Shown: positions 11,616-64,000, numbered from the stretch's first letter. The stretch: DNA of 64,000 bases from Cenarchaeum sp. (GCA_965212015.1 OZ243037.1:224001-288000); one strand, 5' to 3'. A program made the numbers and translations. The notes: generated by a model not told the origin, from the letters alone.

Positions 11616-11709
11616 TGGACCGGATGGGATTTGAACCCATGACCCTTGCGGGATTTGTAAATCCTTACGCAGTGTGAGTGCGTCATCCTAGCCGCTAGAC
11701 GACCGGTCC
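11616..11709 (-). tRNA. tRNA-Val(CAC) with a 21-nt non-canonical intron at 44/45 (11645-11665)
   Basis: GGACCGG acceptor stem, anticodon arm ACGCA-CTCACAC-TGCGT, T arm ATGGG-TTCAAAT-CCCAT. The extra 21 nt form a bulge-helix-bulge. Confidence 0.9.
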
Positions 11710-52713: not shown

Positions 52714-54660
52714 GTGGTACATAACCTGATGCGTCGCTCCTATTACTCTGATGGCATTTGCAAATTTCTGGATTCAGACAGCAATGAAATACTGACAGAA
52801 CTGCGTGAGAATGACATGTTTGAACCGGATAGAAATCAAGAGCAGGCATGGAAAAAACAGATCGAGATATTGAAAAGCCAGCTCCATGATCTAGAATCAG
52901 GACATATACTATTCGAATACACCATACCCAGAATGGGCAAGAGAGTAGACACTATTCTGATCTATGATGATTTTGTATTTGTTATGGAATTCAAGGTCAA
53001 CAAGACCGTATATCAGAAACAAGACGAGGATCAATGCATTGATTATGCACAGGATTTGAAGAATTTTCATGAGGAGAGCCATTGTGCCTCCATAATACCA
53101 ATTCTGGTTTCAACAAAGGCAAAAACAAAAGACAGCACAAAGATAACAAAATGCACAAATGGAGTATACGATATTGCATATGCAAATAAAGACAATATAA
53201 TCAAGGTCATCAAACACGTATGTGATAAGACTTCTGACTGTCAGATAATGCCCTCAAAGTGGGAAAAATCAGCATACCATCCCACGCCGACAATTACAGA
53301 AGCGGCAATGGCACTGTGCAGTAATATTTCAGGTCTTGAGGACATAACCAGATCTGATAAAAATACGAGAAATCTGGGCATTACCACTGATAGAATTTGT
53401 AAGATAATAGAACATTCAAAAAATTCTGGCTTGAAATCCATATGTTTTGTTACGGGTGTTCCTGGATCTGGCAAGACACTTGCCGGACTCAATATCGTTT
53501 GTGGTACGCAGAATAAAAAAAATAAACATGCCGTACTGTTGTCAGGTAATAGTGCACTTGTGGATGTGCTAAAGGAATCACTTGAAAAAGGCGGAGGTTG
53601 TTTAGAAAAATATGGAGGATCTGCGGCGGCTGCTCTCATACAACACATCTCAAAATTTCGGGACACAGCATTTGGAGTTAAAGCACCTTTGGAGAATATT
53701 ATTGTGTTCGATGAGGCTCAAAGGGCATGGTCTGCAAAAAAACTATCCAAAAACAACAGGAACAAGAATCGAAATGATTCAAAAATGTCTGATCCGGAAT
53801 TACTGATCAACTCAATGAACAAACATAATGGCTGGGCAGTCATGGTATGTCTTATAGGTGAAGGCCAAGAAATTTATGATGGAGAGGTTGGACTTGCAGG
53901 CTGGCTTGATGCGATAAAAAAATATCCAAAATGGCATGCATATCACCCAAAAGAATTGGAAAGCATTGAATACATCGATGAGAATGCGTCAACCGTACTA
54001 GATGGCATAACACACACGAGATATCCTGAACTGCATCTTGACACATCCATCCGATCCTTTAGGGGTGAAAATCTTGCGATGTTGGTCAAGAGAATTCTGG
54101 ACTGTGATGTTGACGGTGCACGCAAGACACTGGAAAGTTTGGAGAATTATCCAATCGTCATAACACGTGACATAAACAAGGCAAAGCAATGGATGAGAGA
54201 TCAAGCTAAAGGCACGGCACGATTTGGAATTATAGCAAGCTCTGGTGCGGAAAGGCTAAAACCGTACGGCATATACGTAAGAAATCCCATCAAGCCTACA
54301 AAATGGTTCCTTGCAGACAAGGAAGACATGCGATCCTCGTATTATTTGGAGGATGTCGGAACGGAATTCTACATACAGGGATTGGAGCTTGATTGGGCGT
54401 GTCTTGCGTGGGATGCAAACTTGAGATATGAAAATGGAAAATGGTCGCACCACAAGTTCTTTGGAAATAATTGGAGATCCATTCGACAGGAGAGAGAACG
54501 CACTTATTTGCTCAATTCGTATCGTGTACTATTGACTAGGGCCAGACAGGGCATGGTCATCTTTGTACCTAAAGGTGATAAAACAGACAAGACCAGAGAT
54601 CCAGAGTTTTATGACGGTACGTACGCGTATCTCAAAGACATAGGACTGGAAGAAATTTAG
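52714..54660 (+). CDS. DUF2075 (Schlafen group 3-like) P-loop helicase with N-terminal nuclease-like domain
   Basis: FEYTIPRMGKRVD...MEFK, GVPGSGKT, FDEAQRAW, GEGQEI, QGLELD, NSYRVLLTRARQG. Confidence 0.9.
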   Translation: MVHNLMRRSYYSDGICKFLDSDSNEILTELRENDMFEPDRNQEQAWKKQIEILKSQLHDLESGHILFEYTIPRMGKRVDTILIYDDFVFVMEFKVNKTVYQKQDEDQCIDYAQDLKNFHEESHCASIIPILVSTKAKTKDSTKITKCTNGVYDIAYANKDNIIKVIKHVCDKTSDCQIMPSKWEKSAYHPTPTITEAAMALCSNISGLEDITRSDKNTRNLGITTDRICKIIEHSKNSGLKSICFVTGVPGSGKTLAGLNIVCGTQNKKNKHAVLLSGNSALVDVLKESLEKGGGCLEKYGGSAAAALIQHISKFRDTAFGVKAPLENIIVFDEAQRAWSAKKLSKNNRNKNRNDSKMSDPELLINSMNKHNGWAVMVCLIGEGQEIYDGEVGLAGWLDAIKKYPKWHAYHPKELESIEYIDENASTVLDGITHTRYPELHLDTSIRSFRGENLAMLVKRILDCDVDGARKTLESLENYPIVITRDINKAKQWMRDQAKGTARFGIIASSGAERLKPYGIYVRNPIKPTKWFLADKEDMRSSYYLEDVGTEFYIQGLELDWACLAWDANLRYENGKWSHHKFFGNNWRSIRQERERTYLLNSYRVLLTRARQGMVIFVPKGDKTDKTRDPEFYDGTYAYLKDIGLEEI

Positions 54661-54754: not shown

Positions 54755-55738
54755 TCAAAGCGATTCTGTCAGATATTTCTGCACTCCGTCCTTGCCTGAA
54801 CCGTATTTTTTCTCAAAATCTGTAGCAAGTCTGGATATGCACTTGGATATCTCATCATCAATAGAGTGATTCTTGAGTATCTTTGATGCCACATCGTCCA
54901 CCCATTTGAGAACCTTTACGTGATAGTTTTTCTCCTCGCTAACAAAATCCCACAGTTCACGCCCTATCAACAGCCTTTTCTCCCAGTCCGTCATGTATTT
55001 CTTGACCAGTCCTATTGATACCGTGTTGAGGCCACGCTTGCCATATGTGATTCCTAGCCGGGCAAATTGGTTCTTTTTTTTCTCGGTTTCATCGAATTTT
55101 TGATTAAACCTGTCGATCTGATCCTTGTTGACGTTGTTTGGGCCGCTTTTAACCTGTATCCAATATGTGGAATCACCGATCTCCTTTACGATATCATACC
55201 ATTCCCCCCGCTCTCCCATGCGGGCGCCACTGTTGCCGATCATGTATTCCAGGGACATTCCCATGGAGGTAACGATGGAACGGGTAACGGCCTGATAAAC
55301 GTTGAATCTGATCACCTCCTCTGGAACCTGTAGGTTCAACGCCCGGATTAGAAACGGATTCATGTTTATCTCGCTTAGCGACAAACTGTTCATGTTGTGC
55401 AAAAACTTGTGAATTATCCTGTGCATGGTGAATCTTATCCAATTCTCCGGAAGGGACGAATTTGGATTGATATGCTCTTTGATTTTCTCTGCCATTTTTC
55501 GTTCGTTATCACGAAGTGTTATCTCTGTCTTGTCGCCACTGCGTATGAATTTGGCAGTTTTGAAATCGGTATTTTTGAAGGCTTTCAGGGTGGAGAATTG
55601 TGATGCCAGAATTTCAGCTTTTTTGCCGAAATTGCCTTCTTTTTTTAGCAATACGGTTAGAAAATGAAAGACTTCGGAATCTGGCAACACCAAGTCGTAA
55701 TCGCTTTCAATATTAAGTATTTTCATAATGATCGGCAC
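54755..55738 (-). CDS. Type II restriction endonuclease, EcoO109I/PmeII-like
   Basis: NPFL...TSMG..LE...D...QVKSGPN..N...G.TYG...GRELWDF (PD-(D/E)xK-like). Adjacent to a C5 methyltransferase. Confidence 0.82.
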   Translation of the reverse strand: MPIIMKILNIESDYDLVLPDSEVFHFLTVLLKKEGNFGKKAEILASQFSTLKAFKNTDFKTAKFIRSGDKTEITLRDNERKMAEKIKEHINPNSSLPENWIRFTMHRIIHKFLHNMNSLSLSEINMNPFLIRALNLQVPEEVIRFNVYQAVTRSIVTSMGMSLEYMIGNSGARMGERGEWYDIVKEIGDSTYWIQVKSGPNNVNKDQIDRFNQKFDETEKKKNQFARLGITYGKRGLNTVSIGLVKKYMTDWEKRLLIGRELWDFVSEEKNYHVKVLKWVDDVASKILKNHSIDDEISKCISRLATDFEKKYGSGKDGVQKYLTESL

Positions 55739-55835
55739 AAATCACATGTTGATGTGCCGTGTCTTCCAGCATGGCTTGATTTCTGTTAATATCTGCCCAA
55801 ATTGCTGTGTGTATGAGTAGAAAAAATTACAAACT

Positions 55836-57020
55836 TTAAATGAATTTTTTTATCGCAGCGGCAATTGTCCTTGCTAGTTCTATTGGGACTGCCTCGCCAA
55901 TCATCCGGTATTTCTGGGTGACGGATCCTACAAACTTCCAGTTGTCTGGAAATCCTTGCAGTCTTGCATATTCTTTAACTGATAGTGGGCGAAGTTCATC
56001 CGGATGACAAATACAGCTTCCAAGCTGTGCCGGCGATGTAATCAATGTTGGAGCCGGTGCGTCCCATGACAATCTGCGGTAAAATCCACGTCGTCCTCCC
56101 TGCTTGCCTTTTTTTCTTGGATCTGACGAGTCCGCAGCACCCCCCATTGCTTCTCTTTTGAGGCGTTCCGGCAAGTCAATCCAGCAACCTCCTGCCGGGA
56201 CATATTTTAGATATTTTCCCCATTTTGGAAAATTGATGTGTTCTTTTTCGCGATCATCTAGTCCAACCAATGCATCCCGCAAAGTTCTCCACGGCTTTTT
56301 ACCAATCACTTTGGTATTTTTTGGATCTGCAAACTTTGCCTTTTTTTCAATCTCCTCAAAGATCAATTCGGGATCCGCCACTCTGGATCCTATGAGCACA
56401 AGCCTCTTTCTTTTTTGCGGAACTCCATAATCTGCGGCATTTAGCAGCTTCCATTTTATTTTATAGCCGCTCACTTTTTCAAACTCGTCTATAATCTCCT
56501 CAAAAAGCGAGCCGTATTTTTGTGATTTGGTAATCTTTTTTCCAGAATCTGACATTCTGTCATAGAATGAGACGTGTTTTTTGGCAGCCGATACAAGACC
56601 CGGTACGTTCTCAAAGACAAAGAATTTGGGTTTTATGTCGTTTATTATTCGAATGTACTGCAAGAGGGCAAAGCCGCGCTTGTCCTTGAAGCCTCGTCTT
56701 TTTCCGGCAGTAGAAAACGACTGGCACGGCGGACCGCCTATGATGATGTCCACCTCTCCTTTCTTCATGGATGCCTTTTGGAGTATGTCTGATGATCCTA
56801 TGTTCGTTATGTCTCCCTCATCGCATGATATGCGTGGCCTGTTCTCCCTTATTGTGTTGCAGGCAAATTTTGTAATATCGTTGGCGTATTTTGTGGAAAA
56901 ACCGGCCTTTTCAAACCCCAGATCTAGGCCCATTCCGCAAGTAAAGAGCGATATTATTGTGGGTTGAATTATCTGCTGTTTTTGTTGTTTATGAGCAGGG
57001 CGGATTTTTTGTCTGTACAT
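55836..57020 (-). CDS. DNA (cytosine-5)-methyltransferase
   Basis: SLFTCGMGLDLG, GGPPCQSFS, ENVPG, YGVPQKRKR, RPLSVKEYARLQGFPD, IGEAVP. Confidence 0.96.
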   Translation of the reverse strand: MYRQKIRPAHKQQKQQIIQPTIISLFTCGMGLDLGFEKAGFSTKYANDITKFACNTIRENRPRISCDEGDITNIGSSDILQKASMKKGEVDIIIGGPPCQSFSTAGKRRGFKDKRGFALLQYIRIINDIKPKFFVFENVPGLVSAAKKHVSFYDRMSDSGKKITKSQKYGSLFEEIIDEFEKVSGYKIKWKLLNAADYGVPQKRKRLVLIGSRVADPELIFEEIEKKAKFADPKNTKVIGKKPWRTLRDALVGLDDREKEHINFPKWGKYLKYVPAGGCWIDLPERLKREAMGGAADSSDPRKKGKQGGRRGFYRRLSWDAPAPTLITSPAQLGSCICHPDELRPLSVKEYARLQGFPDNWKFVGSVTQKYRMIGEAVPIELARTIAAAIKKFI

Positions 57021-57135
57021 CGTATACGATCAATCCTTGTGAAATAAAAGTATTAATGTTGCTGGTTATATTGTAATAACCTTATAAGGATCTTAACCAT
57101 TATATCTACTAAAAAACATGATAAAGTGTATTTAA

Positions 57136-57360
57136 ATGAAATTCGATCAAAAAGGAAGACGAATAAAAGAGAAAATACACTATGCCGAAAAACTGAATTC
57201 AGGTGATATTGTAGCTGATTTGGAATCCAGATATGCGGGAATCGCAGATTCGGCCATAGAGGTGGTTTTTGAAATGGCTAATAAGGACGAGATCGAGGAG
57301 ATTCATGCGGTTTTACGTGAGATACAGCCATATTCCTCAAAAATTAACACATTTATCTGA
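57136..57360 (+). CDS. Small hypothetical protein leading the drmAB operon
   Basis: 74-aa ORF divergent from the methyltransferase, ending 16 bp before the helicase start. Confidence 0.55.
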   Translation: MKFDQKGRRIKEKIHYAEKLNSGDIVADLESRYAGIADSAIEVVFEMANKDEIEEIHAVLREIQPYSSKINTFI

Positions 57361-57376
57361 TCACTGTGTTTGATAT

Positions 57377-60300
57377 GTGTTGATTAGAACACATCTTGTG
57401 AAAGCCCTTTATAGCGATCTTCTTGGCCCAAAAGGTGGAAATAAAGAACGCTTTGAAGAACCATTTTTAAACTATGAATTAGGTATTTTGAATTCATCAT
57501 TTTCTTTGAAATCTGATATTGAACAAATAATTTTAGATTCTGAGATAAACTCAGATCCTGCAGAAATTAATTATGAAGAATTAGATTCGCCAAAGATTGA
57601 GAATACTCAAAATTCAGATAACATACGTCAAGACATTGATACTGAACTTAATCTTAAATCTGGTGCTTTATCACTTGGCCTCTCATTTGTTGTAGAAGGT
57701 GATAATCCAAAATTGAAAATATGTGGTACATGGGCCAGATATTTACAGGATAAACAGATTAATAATACTGGCAGGATATTTAATCGATATCCTAATTTTT
57801 TTGTAACTGAATATGATGTAAAAAATTCTCAATCTCGAATAATAAAAGAATTAAAAACTGGTGTGGATGGAAGTAATATAACACATCCAGGTGTTGTTCT
57901 TCATATTTTCAAAAAAGAAATAAAAAACACTAAATGGATTATCAAAATTTTCTTAGAAAATAAGACAAAATATGATACAGAAAAAAATCAAACTGAAAAA
58001 GATAGGATCTTTCAACCTCAAATTAGAGTGAGATTATACAATTCCAAACTAGTTGATCTGGATTCAGATCACCAATTTGATCATAGAAATTATGATAGTG
58101 ATGATTTACTTTATCTGAATTATAGAACAAAAGCTAGGGGTTATCTTTGTGCAGCGGTTTGGGACGAAATTGATCCAGAAAAAGATCAACAAAGTGAAAT
58201 TGGAAAAATGACATGGCCAGATTCTTTATCTGTGCCGGAGAATATTAGAAACACATTCATTAATCCTAGTGTCAGAACCGAATACCTTCCATTATATACT
58301 ATATTGCAACCTGATCAAAAGAATAAATCTACTTTTAGCGCATCAGTATTATCAGAATCATGGAATATTGAAGATATTGATGATCATTTACGATCAATAC
58401 CACAAAATTACAATAATTGGATAGAATCACAAAAAACAATTTTAATGAAAAATAAAAATTTAGGATTAATTGATAAGAAATTAAAATCAATTGGTGACAA
58501 CAACCTTCAACATTGTCTTGATATAAAAAATCGAATTGATGAGGGTATAGATTTTTTACAAACTAATGAAAAGGCTAGAGCAGCATTCTGTTTTATGAAT
58601 GTAGTAATGAATGATAAACGACTTTATGATGAAAATAAATCTTTGGATTGGAAAGAATTCCAAATGGCATTTATTTTACAGAGTCTAAAAGGTGTAAGTG
58701 GTGTATCAGAAATTGATCGAGAGGTCGCAGATGTTCTCTGGTTTCCAACAGGTGGAGGGAAAACAGAGGCATATTTGGGAATTGTAATCTTTGCCATAGC
58801 ATACAGAAGATTAACATCACGTGGCAAATTGAGTAATGATGGTGGCGTATCGGTAATCTCTAGATATACGTTAAGACTACTCACAATCCAACAATTTCAA
58901 CGTGCATTGGGGGCGCTCATCGCTGCGGATATACGGAGAGTCGAAAATTGGCTGCCAAAAGATGCCAAGGGTGGATCTAGAAAAATCTCAGATCCATACA
59001 TGCTTAAACGATTTGAAGGCGGTAAATTGTGGGGAAATCAACGCTTTTCAATTGGAATGTGGATCGGCAGTGAAACTACTCCCAAGGATTTTTGCTATGC
59101 AACTGGAAAAAAAGGCAAAATATTTCTTAACTGTGAAGGTGCATTATTACCGCAGTGGGATAAAAGAAGAAAATTTACATCAGACAGAGGAGGAGATCCG
59201 GCACAAATACAGACATGTCCTGTTTGTAAAAATATACTGTGTCTTTCCAAAGAACAAAAAAGTAGTGGAACCAAAACTTTAACCTGGATAATTAATTCTC
59301 CAAAATCATTAGATGATCTAAAAAATATTCCAAAAAAAGAATTTGAAAATTCTAGAATGACTCTTGAAAAAAATCCTATATTTGATTTCATCTGTGATTC
59401 ATCAACAGATAAGCATTATTATCGATTAACCATGGAAATTTCATCTAAGAGAAGTATCGATAGACAATCAGTTGATTTGTGGTGGAGATCATTTGTCAAA
59501 CCACAATTGGATCCTAATATTGATAATGAACCATTGGAGTCTACAGCTCCATCAATGCCAGGGTATTTTTTCTTGCAGATTCCTGGTTCCAGACGACCTC
59601 ATGATTTTGCGATTTTTTGTACTCATAAAGAATGCAAGCTAAACAATACAAAATGGTTTGAAAAAATTGAAGGAAAATATAATGCAATAATTCCAGAACC
59701 ATTTCAAATTATTGATTCACCTGGAATCTCTAGATCAGTTCCAATCTCTGCATTTACTTCTGATGAACAAATATATTTCCAATGTCCTAGTTTATTAATA
59801 GCTACTGTAGATAAATTTGCCAATCTTCCTTTTGAACCAAAATGCTCTTCACTTTTTGGAAATGTTGATGTAGTTCATCCTTGGTATGGTTATGGTAGAC
59901 GTATTACTTTTGAAACACCAATACAACAAAGAAGCAGTAATCGACGAATTCAAACTGAATTTTCCGATCTGAAAGATATTGCCGGATTTAATCCTCCATC
60001 ATTAATCTTACAGGATGAATTACACTTGATTGAAGGGCCACTTGGAAGTATGGTGGGAATATATGAAATGGCCGTTGATGTTCTTTCTAATGATGGAACT
60101 AGACCAAAATATATTGCATCAAGTGCAACGATCAAAGAATCTAAATCTCAGGTTGGTACAATTTTTAGACGTGATGTTAATGTTTTCCCACCCCTAGGAA
60201 TCAATTCCTCTGATAATTATTTTTCAGAGATTAAAGAAGATATAGGATGTGTTGGTAATAATGCAGGTAGATTGTATCTAGGAATATCTTCAACAAAATC

Positions 60301-63300
60301 TACTGTTACACTTCCAATCAAAGCACAATCGATAATAATGAGTGAGATTTTTAAAATAAAATCAAATCCAGAAGGCTATAATCTAACTGATTATGAAAAA
60401 AATAATTTGGAGGATGCGATTGAACCATATTGGACATTTGTTTCATATTTTACTGATTTACAAATTTTAGCAAAGTTTGAAAATTATTATTCTGAAAATA
60501 TCATTGATTATGTTTCTAAGTGGAGCTCGATAAAAATACCCAATTCTCATTCAAACGCATCTCCTAATTCTGTAAAACCAGGATTAAGGTTTTTTCCTAT
60601 CAAACTTGATCGTAATATAGAAATTTCTAAAATAATAGTTTATTGTACTAATTCTAACGGAAAAATCAAAATTGCATTATATAAAAATGGAGATCCAATA
60701 GGAAATATGATTCACAAATTTGACTATCAAAATTGTAAGATTGGCGAAAATTTGTTTGAATTACCCGATCTTTTTAGTATTAAAAATAATGAAAAAATCT
60801 GGATAGCAATAATTAATGATTCTGAAGACACAATTTTTGAAACAGTTTCTACAAATTATGGTTCTCTTGAAAGTGTAGGTAATGTTCATGAAGATTTTCC
60901 AGATATAATTGAAAATCTAGATAAATTTTCTGGAAATTCAATAAAACTAAGTCTTAATTCTTTTAGGCAATTGCATACAAAAAATAATATTCGATTATCC
61001 AGTGAGACTAAATCTGAAGATCTTGTTAGAAATCTAGACCGACTTAAATCTCGCATGGATGTAGATTCTCTACAAACATCACCAGTTTTTGGAACTGGAA
61101 TAGACATTGATCGTCTGGGTCTGATAGAAATAATGAATCAACCTAAAACAAATTCTGGTTATATCCAATCATCTGGTCGTGTAGGACGAACCAAGCCAGG
61201 ATTGGTGATTAATTGGCTCCGTGCTGGAAGGGCTAGAGATCTAAATCACTATGAAAATTTTATCGGCTATCACAGAATGTTACATAGATTCGTTGAGCCT
61301 GTAACTGCATCACCATTTTCTGATGAGGCAATGAAATTATGTCTTGGCCCAATAATAGTGGCAATTCTACGTAATGCTAGATCCGTCTTAGGTAATCCAA
61401 TCAATACTGGATGGGTTACAGATGCAGGAACGGTTAGAATGGATGAACATAGAAATGATCCGGAAATAATTGCCATTGAAAATATTTTGGAGCAAATTTC
61501 CTCATCAGAATTTATAGCAAAATTTAGAAGAATGCAGAAAATACATTTCAAGAATTTATTTAAAAAATCAAAAGGAAATTGGCATGAAATGGCAAAAGAT
61601 TTGAAGGATAACATCACACCATTATTTACATATGCAGAAAGAAGACCACATGTGACACCATCAAATAATGTGGTACTTGGAACTCCCAATCACACAGATT
61701 TAGGATTAGAAGTCGTGTATGAAGACACTCCAAACTCTTTACGACAAACTGAATCCACATCAACTTTTTTTAAATCAAGTGTAGATACCGTTCAAATTAG
61801 ACCATCACAATTCATAACAAGATATGGTCCGGGTACTCTGATATCTAGAAAAACATCCACTTGGGTAATTCCATCACTTGGAGAATTAGTCTCCAATCTA
61901 AACGGTATAGGAAATTTTGAAGAATCCGATACCTTGGGAAATCGAGAGCTCTATAAATATGAAGTAAAAGATTCAAGAATGAAACGTATCATACGTCGAT
62001 TTAATCCAAAAACAAATTGGGAAAAACTGAGATTTTTCTCCATGCCGACAAATTCTTCACTTACTATAGAAGACATCAAACCAGTATATCGTTGTAATGA
62101 ATTTCCACAATGGGCTATATGTCATAATAAATTACACCCTTCTAAAAAAATCCTATCTAAAACATCTTATGATAACCATATCTTGAGTGTCAAATGTCCA
62201 GAATGTGCTCGATTATCTAGCAATGCGTATAGTACTGAATTTTACAGTGTTCGATATGTACTGGCCTGCAAAAATGGCCACTTAGGAGATCTCAAATGGG
62301 AGTTTGAAATTCATCGATCGACGAATTCTAAATGTTCTGGGGATGTATTCGAATGGATTACATCTGAAAATAATGATAATGTGGAAATTATATGTTTAGG
62401 ACATTGGGATAAAAATAACAATTCTTTTATTTCTAGTAATTGTCATGCTCGCACTACATATTTTGATCTTAAAATAAAATCAAAAAATGGACAGCTTGAT
62501 TGTACTGCACAATTTGCCGAATCAGGTAATGATCCTAATGGATGTGATAGGATCAATGGAATATCACAAGCAAAAATGGTAAGCAAGACTCAGATGAGTA
62601 TAAGAATGCCAGTTATAATGACCACGATGGAAATTCAAAGATATAAAGGAATTCTTTTTGAACTCTATGAACCACTGATATTGGTAATTAAAACACTTTT
62701 TAAATCAACAAATTACACGAAGGAAGATTTTATAAAATATTTGGAAGAAGAAAAAGAAGATGGAACAAAGGGAATTACCAATAATATGATCAGACAAACT
62801 CGCACTGCAACAGATTCAGTTTTTTATGATGTAATTAAGGAAATTATAAAATTTGCTAGAACTAAAGACTCAAAACACGGATCATTATCGGAATATCAAT
62901 CATTAGAAGAAGAATTATTAAGCTTGGAAAATCAAACTCGTGATAATGGTACGGTTGTTCAAGTTGGGCCGGATGATCCTCCTACGGATATTCGATTTCC
63001 AATCTCATTTTCTGCTTCGGGAATAAATTTTGAAGCTATGCCATTTGGGGACATAAAAGTAACACAAATTCAATCTGGATATACTAGAGAAATTTCTCCA
63101 CCCATAATCGAAAATTCTCAAGAGCTCGCTGACGAACAAAACGATGGACGACGAATAGGTAATTTTGTTTCTTTTTCTGCAAAATTTACTGATGAAAATG
63201 ATAATACTTGGTATCTAGCAAATCAATTAAAAGGAGAAGGTATATTCATTCATCTTGATCCAGAACATCACAAAAATGCAATGGATATCTTTAATAATTT

Positions 63301-63844
63301 TAAATCAGAAGATTTTAAAAAATGGAAAAACATTCATGAACAGACAGTAGAAAAAAACACTCCTATACTTAAACAAATTCAAAATAAGGAAGACAAACAG
63401 AAAGATTTTGATGCATTGGAAATGGAAAATATTCTTACGAACCCTCTTTTTGTTTGGTGGCATTCTTTTGCACATGAATTAATCAATCAACTTGCGATTG
63501 ATTCAGGTTTTATGGGAGTATCATTAGGCGAGCGTGTATACTGTATACAAAAACATGAAGGACGTTATTCTGCTGGCATATTCATTTATGCTTCTAGCCC
63601 TGGTGCTGATGGCACACTTGGAGGACTTACTAGCCTAGTCGATAAAAACATTCTTCCCAAAATTATTGAAAAAACTCTAACAAAAATCAATAATTGTTCA
63701 AATGATCCAATATGTTCGGATAGAAGAATTAATGACAAGAGACGTACTGGAGCAGCATGTCATATTTGTTTGATGAATTCGGAAACATCTTGTTCATATA
63801 GGAATAGATTTCTTGATAGAAATTTGGTAATGAATACATTATGA
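57377..63844 (+). CDS. DISARM DrmA helicase - DrmB (DUF1998) fusion protein
   Basis: DrmA part: WFPTGGGKTEAYLG, RYTLRLLTIQQFQR, TVDKFA, QDELHLIEGPLGS, SSATI, YIQSSGRVGR, PNSLR. DrmB part: IRPSQFITRYGPG, ACKNGHLGD, GEGIF, HSFAHEL, DGTLGGL, CSNDPIC, AACHIC...SETSC...N.FLDR. Confidence 0.9.
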   Translation: MLIRTHLVKALYSDLLGPKGGNKERFEEPFLNYELGILNSSFSLKSDIEQIILDSEINSDPAEINYEELDSPKIENTQNSDNIRQDIDTELNLKSGALSLGLSFVVEGDNPKLKICGTWARYLQDKQINNTGRIFNRYPNFFVTEYDVKNSQSRIIKELKTGVDGSNITHPGVVLHIFKKEIKNTKWIIKIFLENKTKYDTEKNQTEKDRIFQPQIRVRLYNSKLVDLDSDHQFDHRNYDSDDLLYLNYRTKARGYLCAAVWDEIDPEKDQQSEIGKMTWPDSLSVPENIRNTFINPSVRTEYLPLYTILQPDQKNKSTFSASVLSESWNIEDIDDHLRSIPQNYNNWIESQKTILMKNKNLGLIDKKLKSIGDNNLQHCLDIKNRIDEGIDFLQTNEKARAAFCFMNVVMNDKRLYDENKSLDWKEFQMAFILQSLKGVSGVSEIDREVADVLWFPTGGGKTEAYLGIVIFAIAYRRLTSRGKLSNDGGVSVISRYTLRLLTIQQFQRALGALIAADIRRVENWLPKDAKGGSRKISDPYMLKRFEGGKLWGNQRFSIGMWIGSETTPKDFCYATGKKGKIFLNCEGALLPQWDKRRKFTSDRGGDPAQIQTCPVCKNILCLSKEQKSSGTKTLTWIINSPKSLDDLKNIPKKEFENSRMTLEKNPIFDFICDSSTDKHYYRLTMEISSKRSIDRQSVDLWWRSFVKPQLDPNIDNEPLESTAPSMPGYFFLQIPGSRRPHDFAIFCTHKECKLNNTKWFEKIEGKYNAIIPEPFQIIDSPGISRSVPISAFTSDEQIYFQCPSLLIATVDKFANLPFEPKCSSLFGNVDVVHPWYGYGRRITFETPIQQRSSNRRIQTEFSDLKDIAGFNPPSLILQDELHLIEGPLGSMVGIYEMAVDVLSNDGTRPKYIASSATIKESKSQVGTIFRRDVNVFPPLGINSSDNYFSEIKEDIGCVGNNAGRLYLGISSTKSTVTLPIKAQSIIMSEIFKIKSNPEGYNLTDYEKNNLEDAIEPYWTFVSYFTDLQILAKFENYYSENIIDYVSKWSSIKIPNSHSNASPNSVKPGLRFFPIKLDRNIEISKIIVYCTNSNGKIKIALYKNGDPIGNMIHKFDYQNCKIGENLFELPDLFSIKNNEKIWIAIINDSEDTIFETVSTNYGSLESVGNVHEDFPDIIENLDKFSGNSIKLSLNSFRQLHTKNNIRLSSETKSEDLVRNLDRLKSRMDVDSLQTSPVFGTGIDIDRLGLIEIMNQPKTNSGYIQSSGRVGRTKPGLVINWLRAGRARDLNHYENFIGYHRMLHRFVEPVTASPFSDEAMKLCLGPIIVAILRNARSVLGNPINTGWVTDAGTVRMDEHRNDPEIIAIENILEQISSSEFIAKFRRMQKIHFKNLFKKSKGNWHEMAKDLKDNITPLFTYAERRPHVTPSNNVVLGTPNHTDLGLEVVYEDTPNSLRQTESTSTFFKSSVDTVQIRPSQFITRYGPGTLISRKTSTWVIPSLGELVSNLNGIGNFEESDTLGNRELYKYEVKDSRMKRIIRRFNPKTNWEKLRFFSMPTNSSLTIEDIKPVYRCNEFPQWAICHNKLHPSKKILSKTSYDNHILSVKCPECARLSSNAYSTEFYSVRYVLACKNGHLGDLKWEFEIHRSTNSKCSGDVFEWITSENNDNVEIICLGHWDKNNNSFISSNCHARTTYFDLKIKSKNGQLDCTAQFAESGNDPNGCDRINGISQAKMVSKTQMSIRMPVIMTTMEIQRYKGILFELYEPLILVIKTLFKSTNYTKEDFIKYLEEEKEDGTKGITNNMIRQTRTATDSVFYDVIKEIIKFARTKDSKHGSLSEYQSLEEELLSLENQTRDNGTVVQVGPDDPPTDIRFPISFSASGINFEAMPFGDIKVTQIQSGYTREISPPIIENSQELADEQNDGRRIGNFVSFSAKFTDENDNTWYLANQLKGEGIFIHLDPEHHKNAMDIFNNFKSEDFKKWKNIHEQTVEKNTPILKQIQNKEDKQKDFDALEMENILTNPLFVWWHSFAHELINQLAIDSGFMGVSLGERVYCIQKHEGRYSAGIFIYASSPGADGTLGGLTSLVDKNILPKIIEKTLTKINNCSNDPICSDRRINDKRRTGAACHICLMNSETSCSYRNRFLDRNLVMNTL

Positions 63845-64000
63845 ATTCATATTCTTTAGGCAATATTGAATCTATTGGAGCTTCAGGAAAAGCTTGGGTC
63901 GGATTTCATGCCGTTGATTTAGCAGATATGTTTTTTGAAGTACTTCGTTCTGCTAAAAAATCAATACAAATCTCTTCATTCTCCACAGGATATCAAAGTA
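63841..64000 (+). CDS. Probable phospholipase D-family nuclease (DrmC-like), truncated by window end
   Basis: ATGA overlap with the drmAB stop. MNSYSLGN...FFEVLRSAKKSIQISSFST resembles the PLD N-terminal strand. The HKD motif is outside the window. Confidence 0.6.
   Translation, partial: MNSYSLGNIESIGASGKAWVGFHAVDLADMFFEVLRSAKKSIQISSFSTGYQS

Follow-up and report, generated by a model that had tools for sequence, protein, structure and literature searches.

A stretch of 64,000 nucleotides (nt) from Cenarchaeum sp. (GCA_965212015.1 OZ243037.1:224001-288000; the window) ends in a probable anti-virus system of the DISARM family whose helicase DrmA and partner protein DrmB form a single chain. 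The window corresponds to G000:C1:224001-288000 of a 1.76-Mb single-contig genome that is 99.7% complete, and the sequence past its end was also read (region L003, in which position 8386 is window coordinate 64386). In our reading, to which we give a probability of roughly 0.78, a C5 cytosine methyltransferase stands divergent from a translationally coupled operon of the fused gene, drmC and a gene that we call X, all on an acquired island. The system would work as described for DrmAB of Serratia, with X in the role of DrmE or DrmD, and a neighbouring restriction endonuclease would be an add-on that shares the methyl mark. The genes that make up the proposed core, with lengths in amino acids (aa), are as follows.

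55836 to 57020, minus strand: C5 cytosine DNA methyltransferase, 394 aa (PF00145, 8.6e-72)
57377 to 63844, plus strand: single-chain DrmA-DrmB (DrmAB, P0001), 2155 aa, probable start TTG at 57380
63841 to 64000, running on to 64386, plus strand: 5' part of drmC, a PLD nuclease gene (181 aa for the whole gene) that overlaps the DrmAB stop by 4 nt
64383 to 65846 (L003 8383-9846), beyond the window, plus strand: gene X (P0006), 487 aa, overlapping the drmC stop by 4 nt

The fused gene is a single open reading frame (ORF) with zero internal stops, and its start is probably the TTG at 57380, as homologues begin MIRTHLVK. The PADLOC DrmA model PDLC02571 (E = 0) covers residues 3-1051 and a second stretch of the protein, and the PADLOC DrmB model PDLC02583 (3.1e-107) covers residues 1470-2154. 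NCBIfam DrmB_fam scores 312.8 bits, above its cut-off of 240, and sequence matches in the PDB are limited to Serratia DrmA (7s9v_A, 1.2e-86) and DrmB (7s9v_B, 3.7e-29). Residues 1-1464 match DrmA and residues 1474-2155 match DrmB, which bears out the preliminary description of this locus as one uninterrupted chain carrying DrmA and then DrmB. From these matches, we identify the protein as a DISARM-clade DrmA joined to DrmB. A different assignment, to a naturally fused YprA system (ARMADA, Druantia DruE, Dpd DpdJ or MrfA), draws on the single-chain helicase-DUF1998 architecture that those families have in the account of Bell et al. (2025; bioRxiv 10.1101/2025.09.15.676423). It is highly improbable: 13 of 13 PADLOC families matching at E<=0.01 are DrmA or DrmB, with no DruE or DpdJ, as had been proposed earlier from the motifs; the PDB matches agree; DUF1998 closes the chain, the DrmB profile reaching 604/604 at residue 2154, and a C-terminal nuclease is lacking; BrxHII and PglX models match none of the neighbours; a PLD-type DrmC follows; and the helicase nests inside the canonical split DrmAs, as described below. 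For ARMADA the exclusion is one of architecture and context, PADLOC v2.0.0 having no ARMADA model. Within the fused protein, the following parts can be recognized.

57497 to 57658, plus strand: acidic, poorly conserved segment, aa 41-94, aligned with the trigger loop of Serratia DrmA (residues 176-232)
58742 to 58765, plus strand: helicase motif I (Walker A), FPTGGGKT, aa 456-463
60011 to 60025, plus strand: helicase motif II, QDELH, aa 879-883
60509 to 60976, plus strand: jelly-roll beta-sandwich insert, aa ~1045-1200 (about 150 aa), placed after helicase motif III and before motif VI
61166 to 61189, plus strand: helicase motif VI, QSSGRVGR, aa 1264-1271
61769 to 61795, plus strand: fusion linker of about 9 aa, aa ~1465-1473, from aligned termini of split DrmA and DrmB proteins
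61796 to 63841, plus strand: DrmB-homologous part (OB-connector-DUF1998 module), aa 1474-2155, matched by PADLOC and NCBIfam, with Pfam MZB at aa 2031-2132
63695 to 63793, plus strand: DUF1998 zinc-cysteine cluster, C2107, C2113, C2128, C2131 and C2139

Conservation was scored on 36 fused homologues, down to 38% identity. Motif I and the five cysteines are invariant in 36/36, as are Q879, D880, E881 and H883 of motif II and Q1264, G1267, R1268, V1269, G1270 and R1271 of motif VI. With the helicase motifs and the DUF1998 cysteines unvaried, the protein looks functional. The acidic segment (aa 41-94), in turn, is unconserved across the same homologues. Using phmmer, residues 3-130 align with residues 136-266 of 7s9v_A, so that the N-terminal 135 residues of the class 1 DrmA are absent and the acidic loop would correspond to the Serratia trigger loop, which is autoinhibitory and spans residues 176-232 according to Bravo 2022 (PMC9142583).

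The junction was located with four split DrmA/DrmB pairs of the same phylum. The last 2-4 DrmA residues align at residue 1464 of the fused protein, and DrmB residues 5-6 align at residue 1474 in three of the four pairs, the fourth alignment beginning at its residue 28. Because split DrmA ends map to 1464 and split DrmB starts to 1474, the two proteins are fused end to end through about 9 aa; the linker had previously been put at about 12 aa and at ~61730-61810, a range that holds the position found here. Split DrmAs that carry the insert end a few residues past a conserved SLRxxE, and fused forms continue into IRPSQF. Since the drmA and drmB genes of split relatives adjoin each other or share a few bases, one assembly or sequencing error, a lost stop or an indel, could join two real genes into an apparent single chain. 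Such an artefact is excluded for practical purposes, since contigs from two studies bridge the junction. The contig of run X1, which may be the source sample, spans 61315-62300 with 0 differences, and that of run X2, from another study, spans the same interval, differing by 7 substitutions and by a 1-nt deletion offset by a 1-nt insertion (61614/61616); neither contig has the stop at the junction that had been raised as a concern. Furthermore, 72 full-length fused homologues, 35-83% identical over the DrmB part, share the junction, and the flanking residues S1454, R1456, E1459, R1475 and P1476 are invariant among the 36 aligned. No RNA dataset was listed as containing the junction stretch.

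The fusion is not rare, and the layout recurs in nature. A search with the DrmB part, limited to proteins of 1185-3772 aa, gave 132 matches at the level of 90% identity clusters, and helicase and DrmB parts are both present in all 120 that were listed, so that there are at least 120 fused clusters. Among these, 78 contain the jelly-roll insert (72 of them with lengths of 2024-2255 aa), 26 lack it (1605-2065 aa; the named ones are bacterial, from Schekmanbacteria and Streptosporangiaceae), and 16 match in part only. A few named bacterial fused proteins are labelled 'DISARM system helicase DrmA' or 'DUF1998 domain-containing protein' in NCBI, and both the DrmA and the DrmB models match the four bacterial-type proteins tested; the preliminary description had accordingly overrated the rarity of the single chain. 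Fused proteins of the thaumarchaeal type are mostly unnamed, and the named ones are called 'hypothetical protein'. Other samples gave the following counts: 13 of the best 150 helicase-region representatives (50% identity) carry both parts; 80 species-representative loci comprise two fused (L033, from a Nitrosopumilus sp. metagenome-assembled genome (MAG), and L060, from Schekmanbacteria), 70 split and eight with DrmA alone; and a phylum sample of 401 genomes includes 11 that match P0001, with fusions only in our genome and in G251. Our literature search found no description of a fused DISARM DrmA-DrmB or of DISARM in Thaumarchaeota, although the supplement to Bell et al. (2025) may list such proteins.

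We placed the protein in a FastTree phylogeny of 142 DrmA helicase regions. These comprise the 126 representatives left after 24 fragments had been removed from the 150, together with 11 more fused proteins, four split ones from the phylum and the window protein. In this tree, which is midpoint-rooted without an outgroup, has SH-like support values and counts as 'split' any DrmA with no DrmB part on the same protein, the window protein lies in a clade of ten rows, all fused (support 100), whose sister is a split, insert-bearing DrmA of 1531 aa. Both belong to a 19-row clade of insert-bearing proteins (support 100) that nests among ordinary split DrmAs, and the window protein is 36-46% identical to the split DrmAs among which the fused clade nests. 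At least eight changes between the fused and the split state are needed on the tree. According to Bell et al. (2025), DISARM is the only YprA branch that consistently encodes the helicase and the DUF1998 part separately. We read the fusion as secondary and recurrent, judging from the tree, and not as a relic of a fused YprA ancestor.

The jelly-roll insert, which the preliminary description had not mentioned, is confined on the tree to the 19-row clade and needs one gain there. It is present in seven split DrmAs of 1150-1652 aa and absent from all four split relatives of the same phylum. An AlphaFold2 (AF2) model built with 41 homologues is confident and all-beta, with a predicted local distance difference test score (pLDDT) of 88.9. 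Its structural matches include cyanophage A4 capsid chain 9jwb_Z (VIA Z 16.7, root-mean-square deviation (rmsd) 2.6, 147 residues aligned), a Bxb1 tail-tip chain (Z 14.6, rmsd 5.8, 170 residues), a carbohydrate-esterase CBM-like domain (Z 13.9, rmsd 2.7, 145 residues) and a PHR domain (Z 11.6, rmsd 2.9, 135 residues), and Foldseek agrees with VIA on a jelly-roll sandwich. The fold alone gives no function; our guess from the model is a binding module.

The gene that follows belongs to DISARM as well. As previously noted, a PLD-like gene starting at 63841 overlaps the DrmAB stop, and its full product matches PADLOC DrmC (PDLC02614, 2e-22) and PLDc_2 (4.3e-18). Past position 64000 its HKD motif is intact, with H124, K126, D131, G138, S139 and N141 invariant in nine sequences. 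The PLD domain takes up residues 33-163 of 181, so that the protein is too short to accommodate the N-terminal four-helix bundle present in most DrmCs according to Bell et al. (2025), who suggested a link between this bundle and split genes. We saw no simple correlation of that kind, in a comparison made with no formal test: many split loci have a short DrmC (155-183 aa). At the fused Schekmanbacteria locus L060, DrmC has 285 aa, including a 127-aa N-terminal extension. The 4-nt overlaps at both gene junctions indicate that DrmAB, drmC and X are translationally coupled.

Comparison with related loci showed that a set of four genes (methyltransferase, DrmAB, DrmC and X) is conserved in relatives. 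The Nitrosopumilus locus L033 contains, in order, a methyltransferase 68% identical to that of the window, a vsr gene, DrmAB, DrmC and X. At the G251 locus (L028), DrmAB, DrmC and X are 61%, 74% and 46% identical to the window proteins, and a displaced methyltransferase is 50% identical. L034, a Cenarchaeum sp. MAG record, has the same gene set with DrmA (1474 aa) and DrmB separate. We also observed that three insertion sequence transposases (DDE_Tnp_1, IS66 and DDE_3; L028 1917-6025) lie between the methyltransferase and the fused DrmAB of G251, and that L058, a Nitrosopumilus sp. MAG record, is a decayed copy that retains no more than part of DrmA (487 aa) and part of X (298 aa).

Gene X lies past the window end and was likewise no part of the preliminary description. 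It has no match in Pfam, PADLOC or NCBIfam, and a look-up in the ESM Atlas gave no usable match. Its family has 57 further clusters, all of them lacking Pfam domains, and one is named as a Nitrosopumilus sp. hypothetical protein; for 24 of the 57, comparing the tables by hand, the longest contig equals in size that of a fused DrmAB match. A profile of X matches seven of the 80 related loci, two of which had been in the profile. All seven are archaeal (none of the bacterial loci among the 80 has X), and the matches extend over Nitrosopumilaceae, both fused and split, Methanomethylicaceae, Bathyarchaeia (4e-30) and Thorarchaeota (1e-14), with X directly 3' of DrmC in every intact case. In the phylum sample, X is found in six of 401 genomes: four with DrmA/B, G206, and G063, where it is a fragment with a stop. 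The G206 locus (L127 on contig G206:C115, 3982-11728), from a different family of the phylum, has another DISARM-like layout. Its X homologue, of 473 aa (E 9e-38), is divergent from two neighbours, a DEAD-box/Helicase_C protein of 797 aa and a DUF1998 (MZB)-PLD fusion of 784 aa that is in effect a DrmB-DrmC fusion, and N6/N4 methyltransferases flank these genes.

These contexts bear on the possibility that X travels on the island as an unrelated passenger and has no part in defence. X matches no known family, and it was not found in seven of the 11 phylum-sample genomes that match P0001, nor in the bacterial loci. We nevertheless regard a mere passenger as unlikely: the start of X overlaps the drmC stop by 4 nt, X keeps the same place after DrmC from Nitrosopumilaceae to Thorarchaeota, and it also accompanies the differently fused helicase and DUF1998-PLD system of G206. 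The identification of X as DrmE was rejected as well, with no match to the NCBIfam DrmE model and an hhalign probability of 1.2% against two verified DrmEs (L069 and L084, found with NCBIfam).

An AF2 model of X is confident (pLDDT 88.4; predicted template modelling score (pTM) 0.90). Its top fold matches are all tandem-OB DNA binders, namely HIN-200 (Foldseek E 6.4e-4, probability 0.99), RPA70, the BRCA2 OB domains, LEF-3 and Stn1/RPA32, and its C-terminal helical part gives winged-helix-type matches. Judging from the model, X is most likely a tandem-OB protein that binds exposed single-stranded DNA (ssDNA) or bridges it to the nuclease. A predicted complex of DrmC with X had a score of 0.00 (mark, 0.32) and weighs neither way. 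We tentatively extend this, at somewhat less than even odds, to the idea that archaea have a DISARM class of their own, in which an RPA/HIN-like tandem-OB and winged-helix X replaces DrmE or DrmD as the essential component for sensing or handling ssDNA. In such a class, X would accompany helicase-DUF1998-PLD cores whatever their fusion (split A and B, fused A-B, or helicase and B-C fusion as in G206), and the fused jelly-roll DrmAB would be one lineage, able to share a cytosine methyl mark with a restriction enzyme.

Upstream of the operon, the preliminary description had placed a C5 methyltransferase and an EcoO109I-like endonuclease in divergent orientation, and both assignments hold. The two genes lie beside a small ORF, and a second methyltransferase follows the operon.

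54755 to 55738, minus strand: EcoO109I-family Type II restriction endonuclease, 327 aa (Pfam RE_EcoO109I, PF14511, 2e-16)
57136 to 57360, plus strand: small 74-aa ORF directly 5' of DrmAB, a candidate gene on weak evidence
66131 to 67108 (L003 10131-11108), beyond the window, same strand as X: second C5 methyltransferase (P0007), 285 bp past X

The translated upstream methyltransferase shows the motifs FxGxG, PCQ, ENV and QxRxR, and its best PADLOC match is DrmMII (PDLC02650, 354.2 bits). Its relatives occur both in DISARM and in restriction contexts. The 68% identical enzyme of L033 stands divergently beside the fused DrmAB, with the vsr gene between them, and the 50% identical one lies near that of G251; a third, 56% identical, occurs in G227 in a stand-alone pair, directly followed by an endonuclease homologue (31% identity). 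Because relatives occupy both kinds of place, the family appears to serve both contexts. The endonuclease has no PADLOC or NCBIfam match; its homologues are absent from all 80 DISARM loci, and tblastn found none in L028, L033, L034 or L058. Judged by this distribution, the endonuclease is a local add-on to the DISARM operon. The methyltransferase is likely to act as DrmMII for the system while also partnering the endonuclease, and the suggestion made earlier of one methyl mark shared by restriction and DISARM remains plausible, with relatives of the enzyme at fused DrmAB loci and at the G227 pair. A second homologue of the EcoO109I family, a 239-aa frame with 26% identity, was observed in the same genome about 48 kb past the window end (G000:C1:335803-336492).

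The methyltransferase might instead serve the EcoO109I-like pair only, with DrmAB-DrmC-X working independently of a methylase, or using P0007, and telling self by DNA structure. The pair does occur in G227, which is not among the phylum-sample genomes matching P0001. Its GC content (0.43 for the endonuclease and 0.44 for the methyltransferase, against 0.32 for DrmAB) would allow a separate history, and P0007, past X on the same strand, has the place that the methyltransferase takes in the split relatives G012 and L064. In addition, DISARM also restricts phage without methylation sites and senses DNA structure, according to Bravo 2022 (PMC9142583). We consider this arrangement improbable, at about one chance in four, because the closest relative of the methyltransferase among the loci examined adjoins a fused DrmAB at a locus that has no homologue of the endonuclease, and the G251 relative again lies near a fused DrmAB. 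P0007 itself has a host-like GC of 0.515 and orthologues that occur sporadically (14 of 61 family genomes; best identity 68%, within the genus).

We take the DISARM operon, from its base composition and distribution, to be on a low-GC island gained by horizontal transfer. GC is 0.32 for DrmAB, 0.29 for DrmC and 0.255 for X, against 0.51 for window bases 1-52000, and the four other genomes of the genus have split DrmA/B only (28-56% identity over matched segments, 31% over the longest). After X, GC is back to the host level at P0007, which is followed by an FAD-dependent oxidoreductase-like gene. Flanking direct repeats of att type were not found at the island borders, and the 20 kb that start at window position 56001 contain no tRNA; the sole tRNAs of the window are at 11.6 and 31.7 kb. 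The first of these, called as tRNA-Val (CAC) at 11616-11709 on the minus strand, coincides with a local GC dip (0.39-0.42, 8-12 kb) and is, at 94 nt, longer than a standard tRNA, which an archaeal intron may explain. Three larger genomes of the same genus (G415, G431 and G437; 3.2-3.9 Mb) each contain several separate split DrmA/DrmB-like loci, with 7-14 matched segments and internal stops in some.

Two further genes adjoin the system. The 74-aa ORF has a weak match at the equivalent position 5' of fused DrmAB in G251 (L028 8427-8609; tblastn 30% over 66 aa, E 5e-7 in a small database) and may be a small regulator or due to chance. Before the endonuclease lies a helicase gene with a GC of 0.41.

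52714 to 54660, plus strand: DUF2075/Schlafen-group-3 helicase protein, 648 aa (PADLOC candidate PDC-S41, 5.2e-245, full length; Pfam SLFN-g3_helicase, 1.3e-70)

A PDC-S41 homologue occurs near DrmA in one of the 80 related loci, and the gene is probably a separate defence candidate on the same low-GC island.

A working model for the system can be carried over from Serratia DrmAB (Bravo 2022, PMC9142583). The methyltransferase would mark host cytosines as self, and the N-terminal acidic loop would hold the helicase off until invader ssDNA with a free end displaces it. The fused helicase would then translocate with ATP beneath the DUF1998 'canopy', DrmC or another nuclease would degrade the DNA, and X would bind the single strand, in the position that DrmE or DrmD occupy in canonical DISARM. 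The fusion would merely hard-wire the 1:1 pairing of DrmA and DrmB that DISARM needs. The endonuclease would probably use the same methyltransferase for protection, so that one mark would serve both restriction and DISARM.

Several points count against this reading of the system, beyond the place of P0007, the composition of the endonuclease-methyltransferase pair, the missing X in seven of 11 genomes and the rooting, support values and coding of the tree. The NCBIfam model DISARM_DrmAL scores 983.6 bits, 15 bits short of its curated cut-off of 999. For the methyltransferase, a generic MTase_II model (338 bits) is a near tie with DrmMII, and the structural matches of the X model are weak, the best VIA Z being 4.5. 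Finally, the mechanistic steps all derive from a class 1 bacterial system that is about 30% identical.

These results have several implications. The split between the DISARM helicase and its DUF1998 partner seems to have been undone or redone repeatedly, as the changes on the tree indicate, and a natural single-chain DrmAB could be simpler for biochemistry and cryo-electron microscopy than a co-expressed pair. X is a concrete candidate for a missing working part of archaeal DISARM, and a locus that combines endonuclease, methyltransferase and DISARM is a natural setting in which to ask whether two defence layers can share one methyl mark. Since the closest public homologues are mostly unnamed or called 'hypothetical protein', genome annotation misses these systems; a likely cause is a DrmA model score just under the cut-off.

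Among the known systems close to the locus is class 2 DISARM, which has the composition DrmE-DrmA-DrmB-DrmC-DrmMII (Ofir et al. 2018, as summarised in PMC9252829 and PMC11529989). The locus shares with this class a DrmA-type SF2 helicase, a DrmB with OB, connector and DUF1998, a PLD-type DrmC and an adjacent C5 methyltransferase, and it lacks an N-terminal EVE-like domain, the SNF2 protein DrmD and the N6A methyltransferase DrmMI. It differs from class 2 in that DrmA and DrmB form one chain, X follows a short DrmC, DrmA contains the jelly-roll insert and no DrmE was found. In agreement with the preliminary description, which had seen neither gene upstream, no DrmD or DrmE was found beside the locus on either side. 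No DrmE model matches among the neighbours, the model NF038316 finds none in the 99.7%-complete genome, and PADLOC detected none in the genes after DrmC or before DrmA at ten bacterial and archaeal loci. For DrmD, the best match in the genome, about 470 kb away, scores 379.6 bits where the cut-off is 610, and the same model matches 14 of 14 control genomes. An N6A methyltransferase is absent from the ORFs scanned between window position 52714 and about 68300.

Compared with the class 1 DrmAB of Serratia sp. SCBI (7S9V/7S9W; Bravo 2022, PMC9142583), the window protein has a counterpart of the acidic trigger loop, and the 1:1 assembly required there would be hard-wired here. Unlike that complex, it is covalently joined, contains the extra jelly-roll, does without the first 135 DrmA residues and is not accompanied by DrmD or DrmMI. 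The split operon of L034 shares the insert and the gene order with the window operon (methyltransferase, DrmA, DrmB, then a DrmC of 171 aa and an X of 482 aa), and its DrmA and the other split insert-bearing DrmAs (P0186-P0192) are 42-46% identical to the window DrmA; it differs in having separate drmA and drmB genes, with a DrmA that ends few residues past SLRxxE. ARMADA type I, which has archaeal members, resembles the system in having a large single-chain YprA-family helicase with DUF1998 and a methyltransferase in a defence operon. In the description of Bell et al. (2025), however, the ARMADA type I helicase carries a Vsr-type nuclease at its C-terminus and is accompanied by a BrxHII-like helicase and a PglX-like methyltransferase, whereas the window locus lacks all three and has a separate PLD protein and a C5 methyltransferase. 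In stand-alone EcoO109I-type pairs, as in the window, the RE_EcoO109I endonuclease adjoins a C5 methyltransferase, and the order is that of the G227 pair; the window pair differs in that it abuts a DISARM operon and that the nearest relatives of its methyltransferase are at DISARM loci with no endonuclease. Taken together, these comparisons identify the system as a variant of a known one, in which gene X and the putative shared methyl mark are most worth following.

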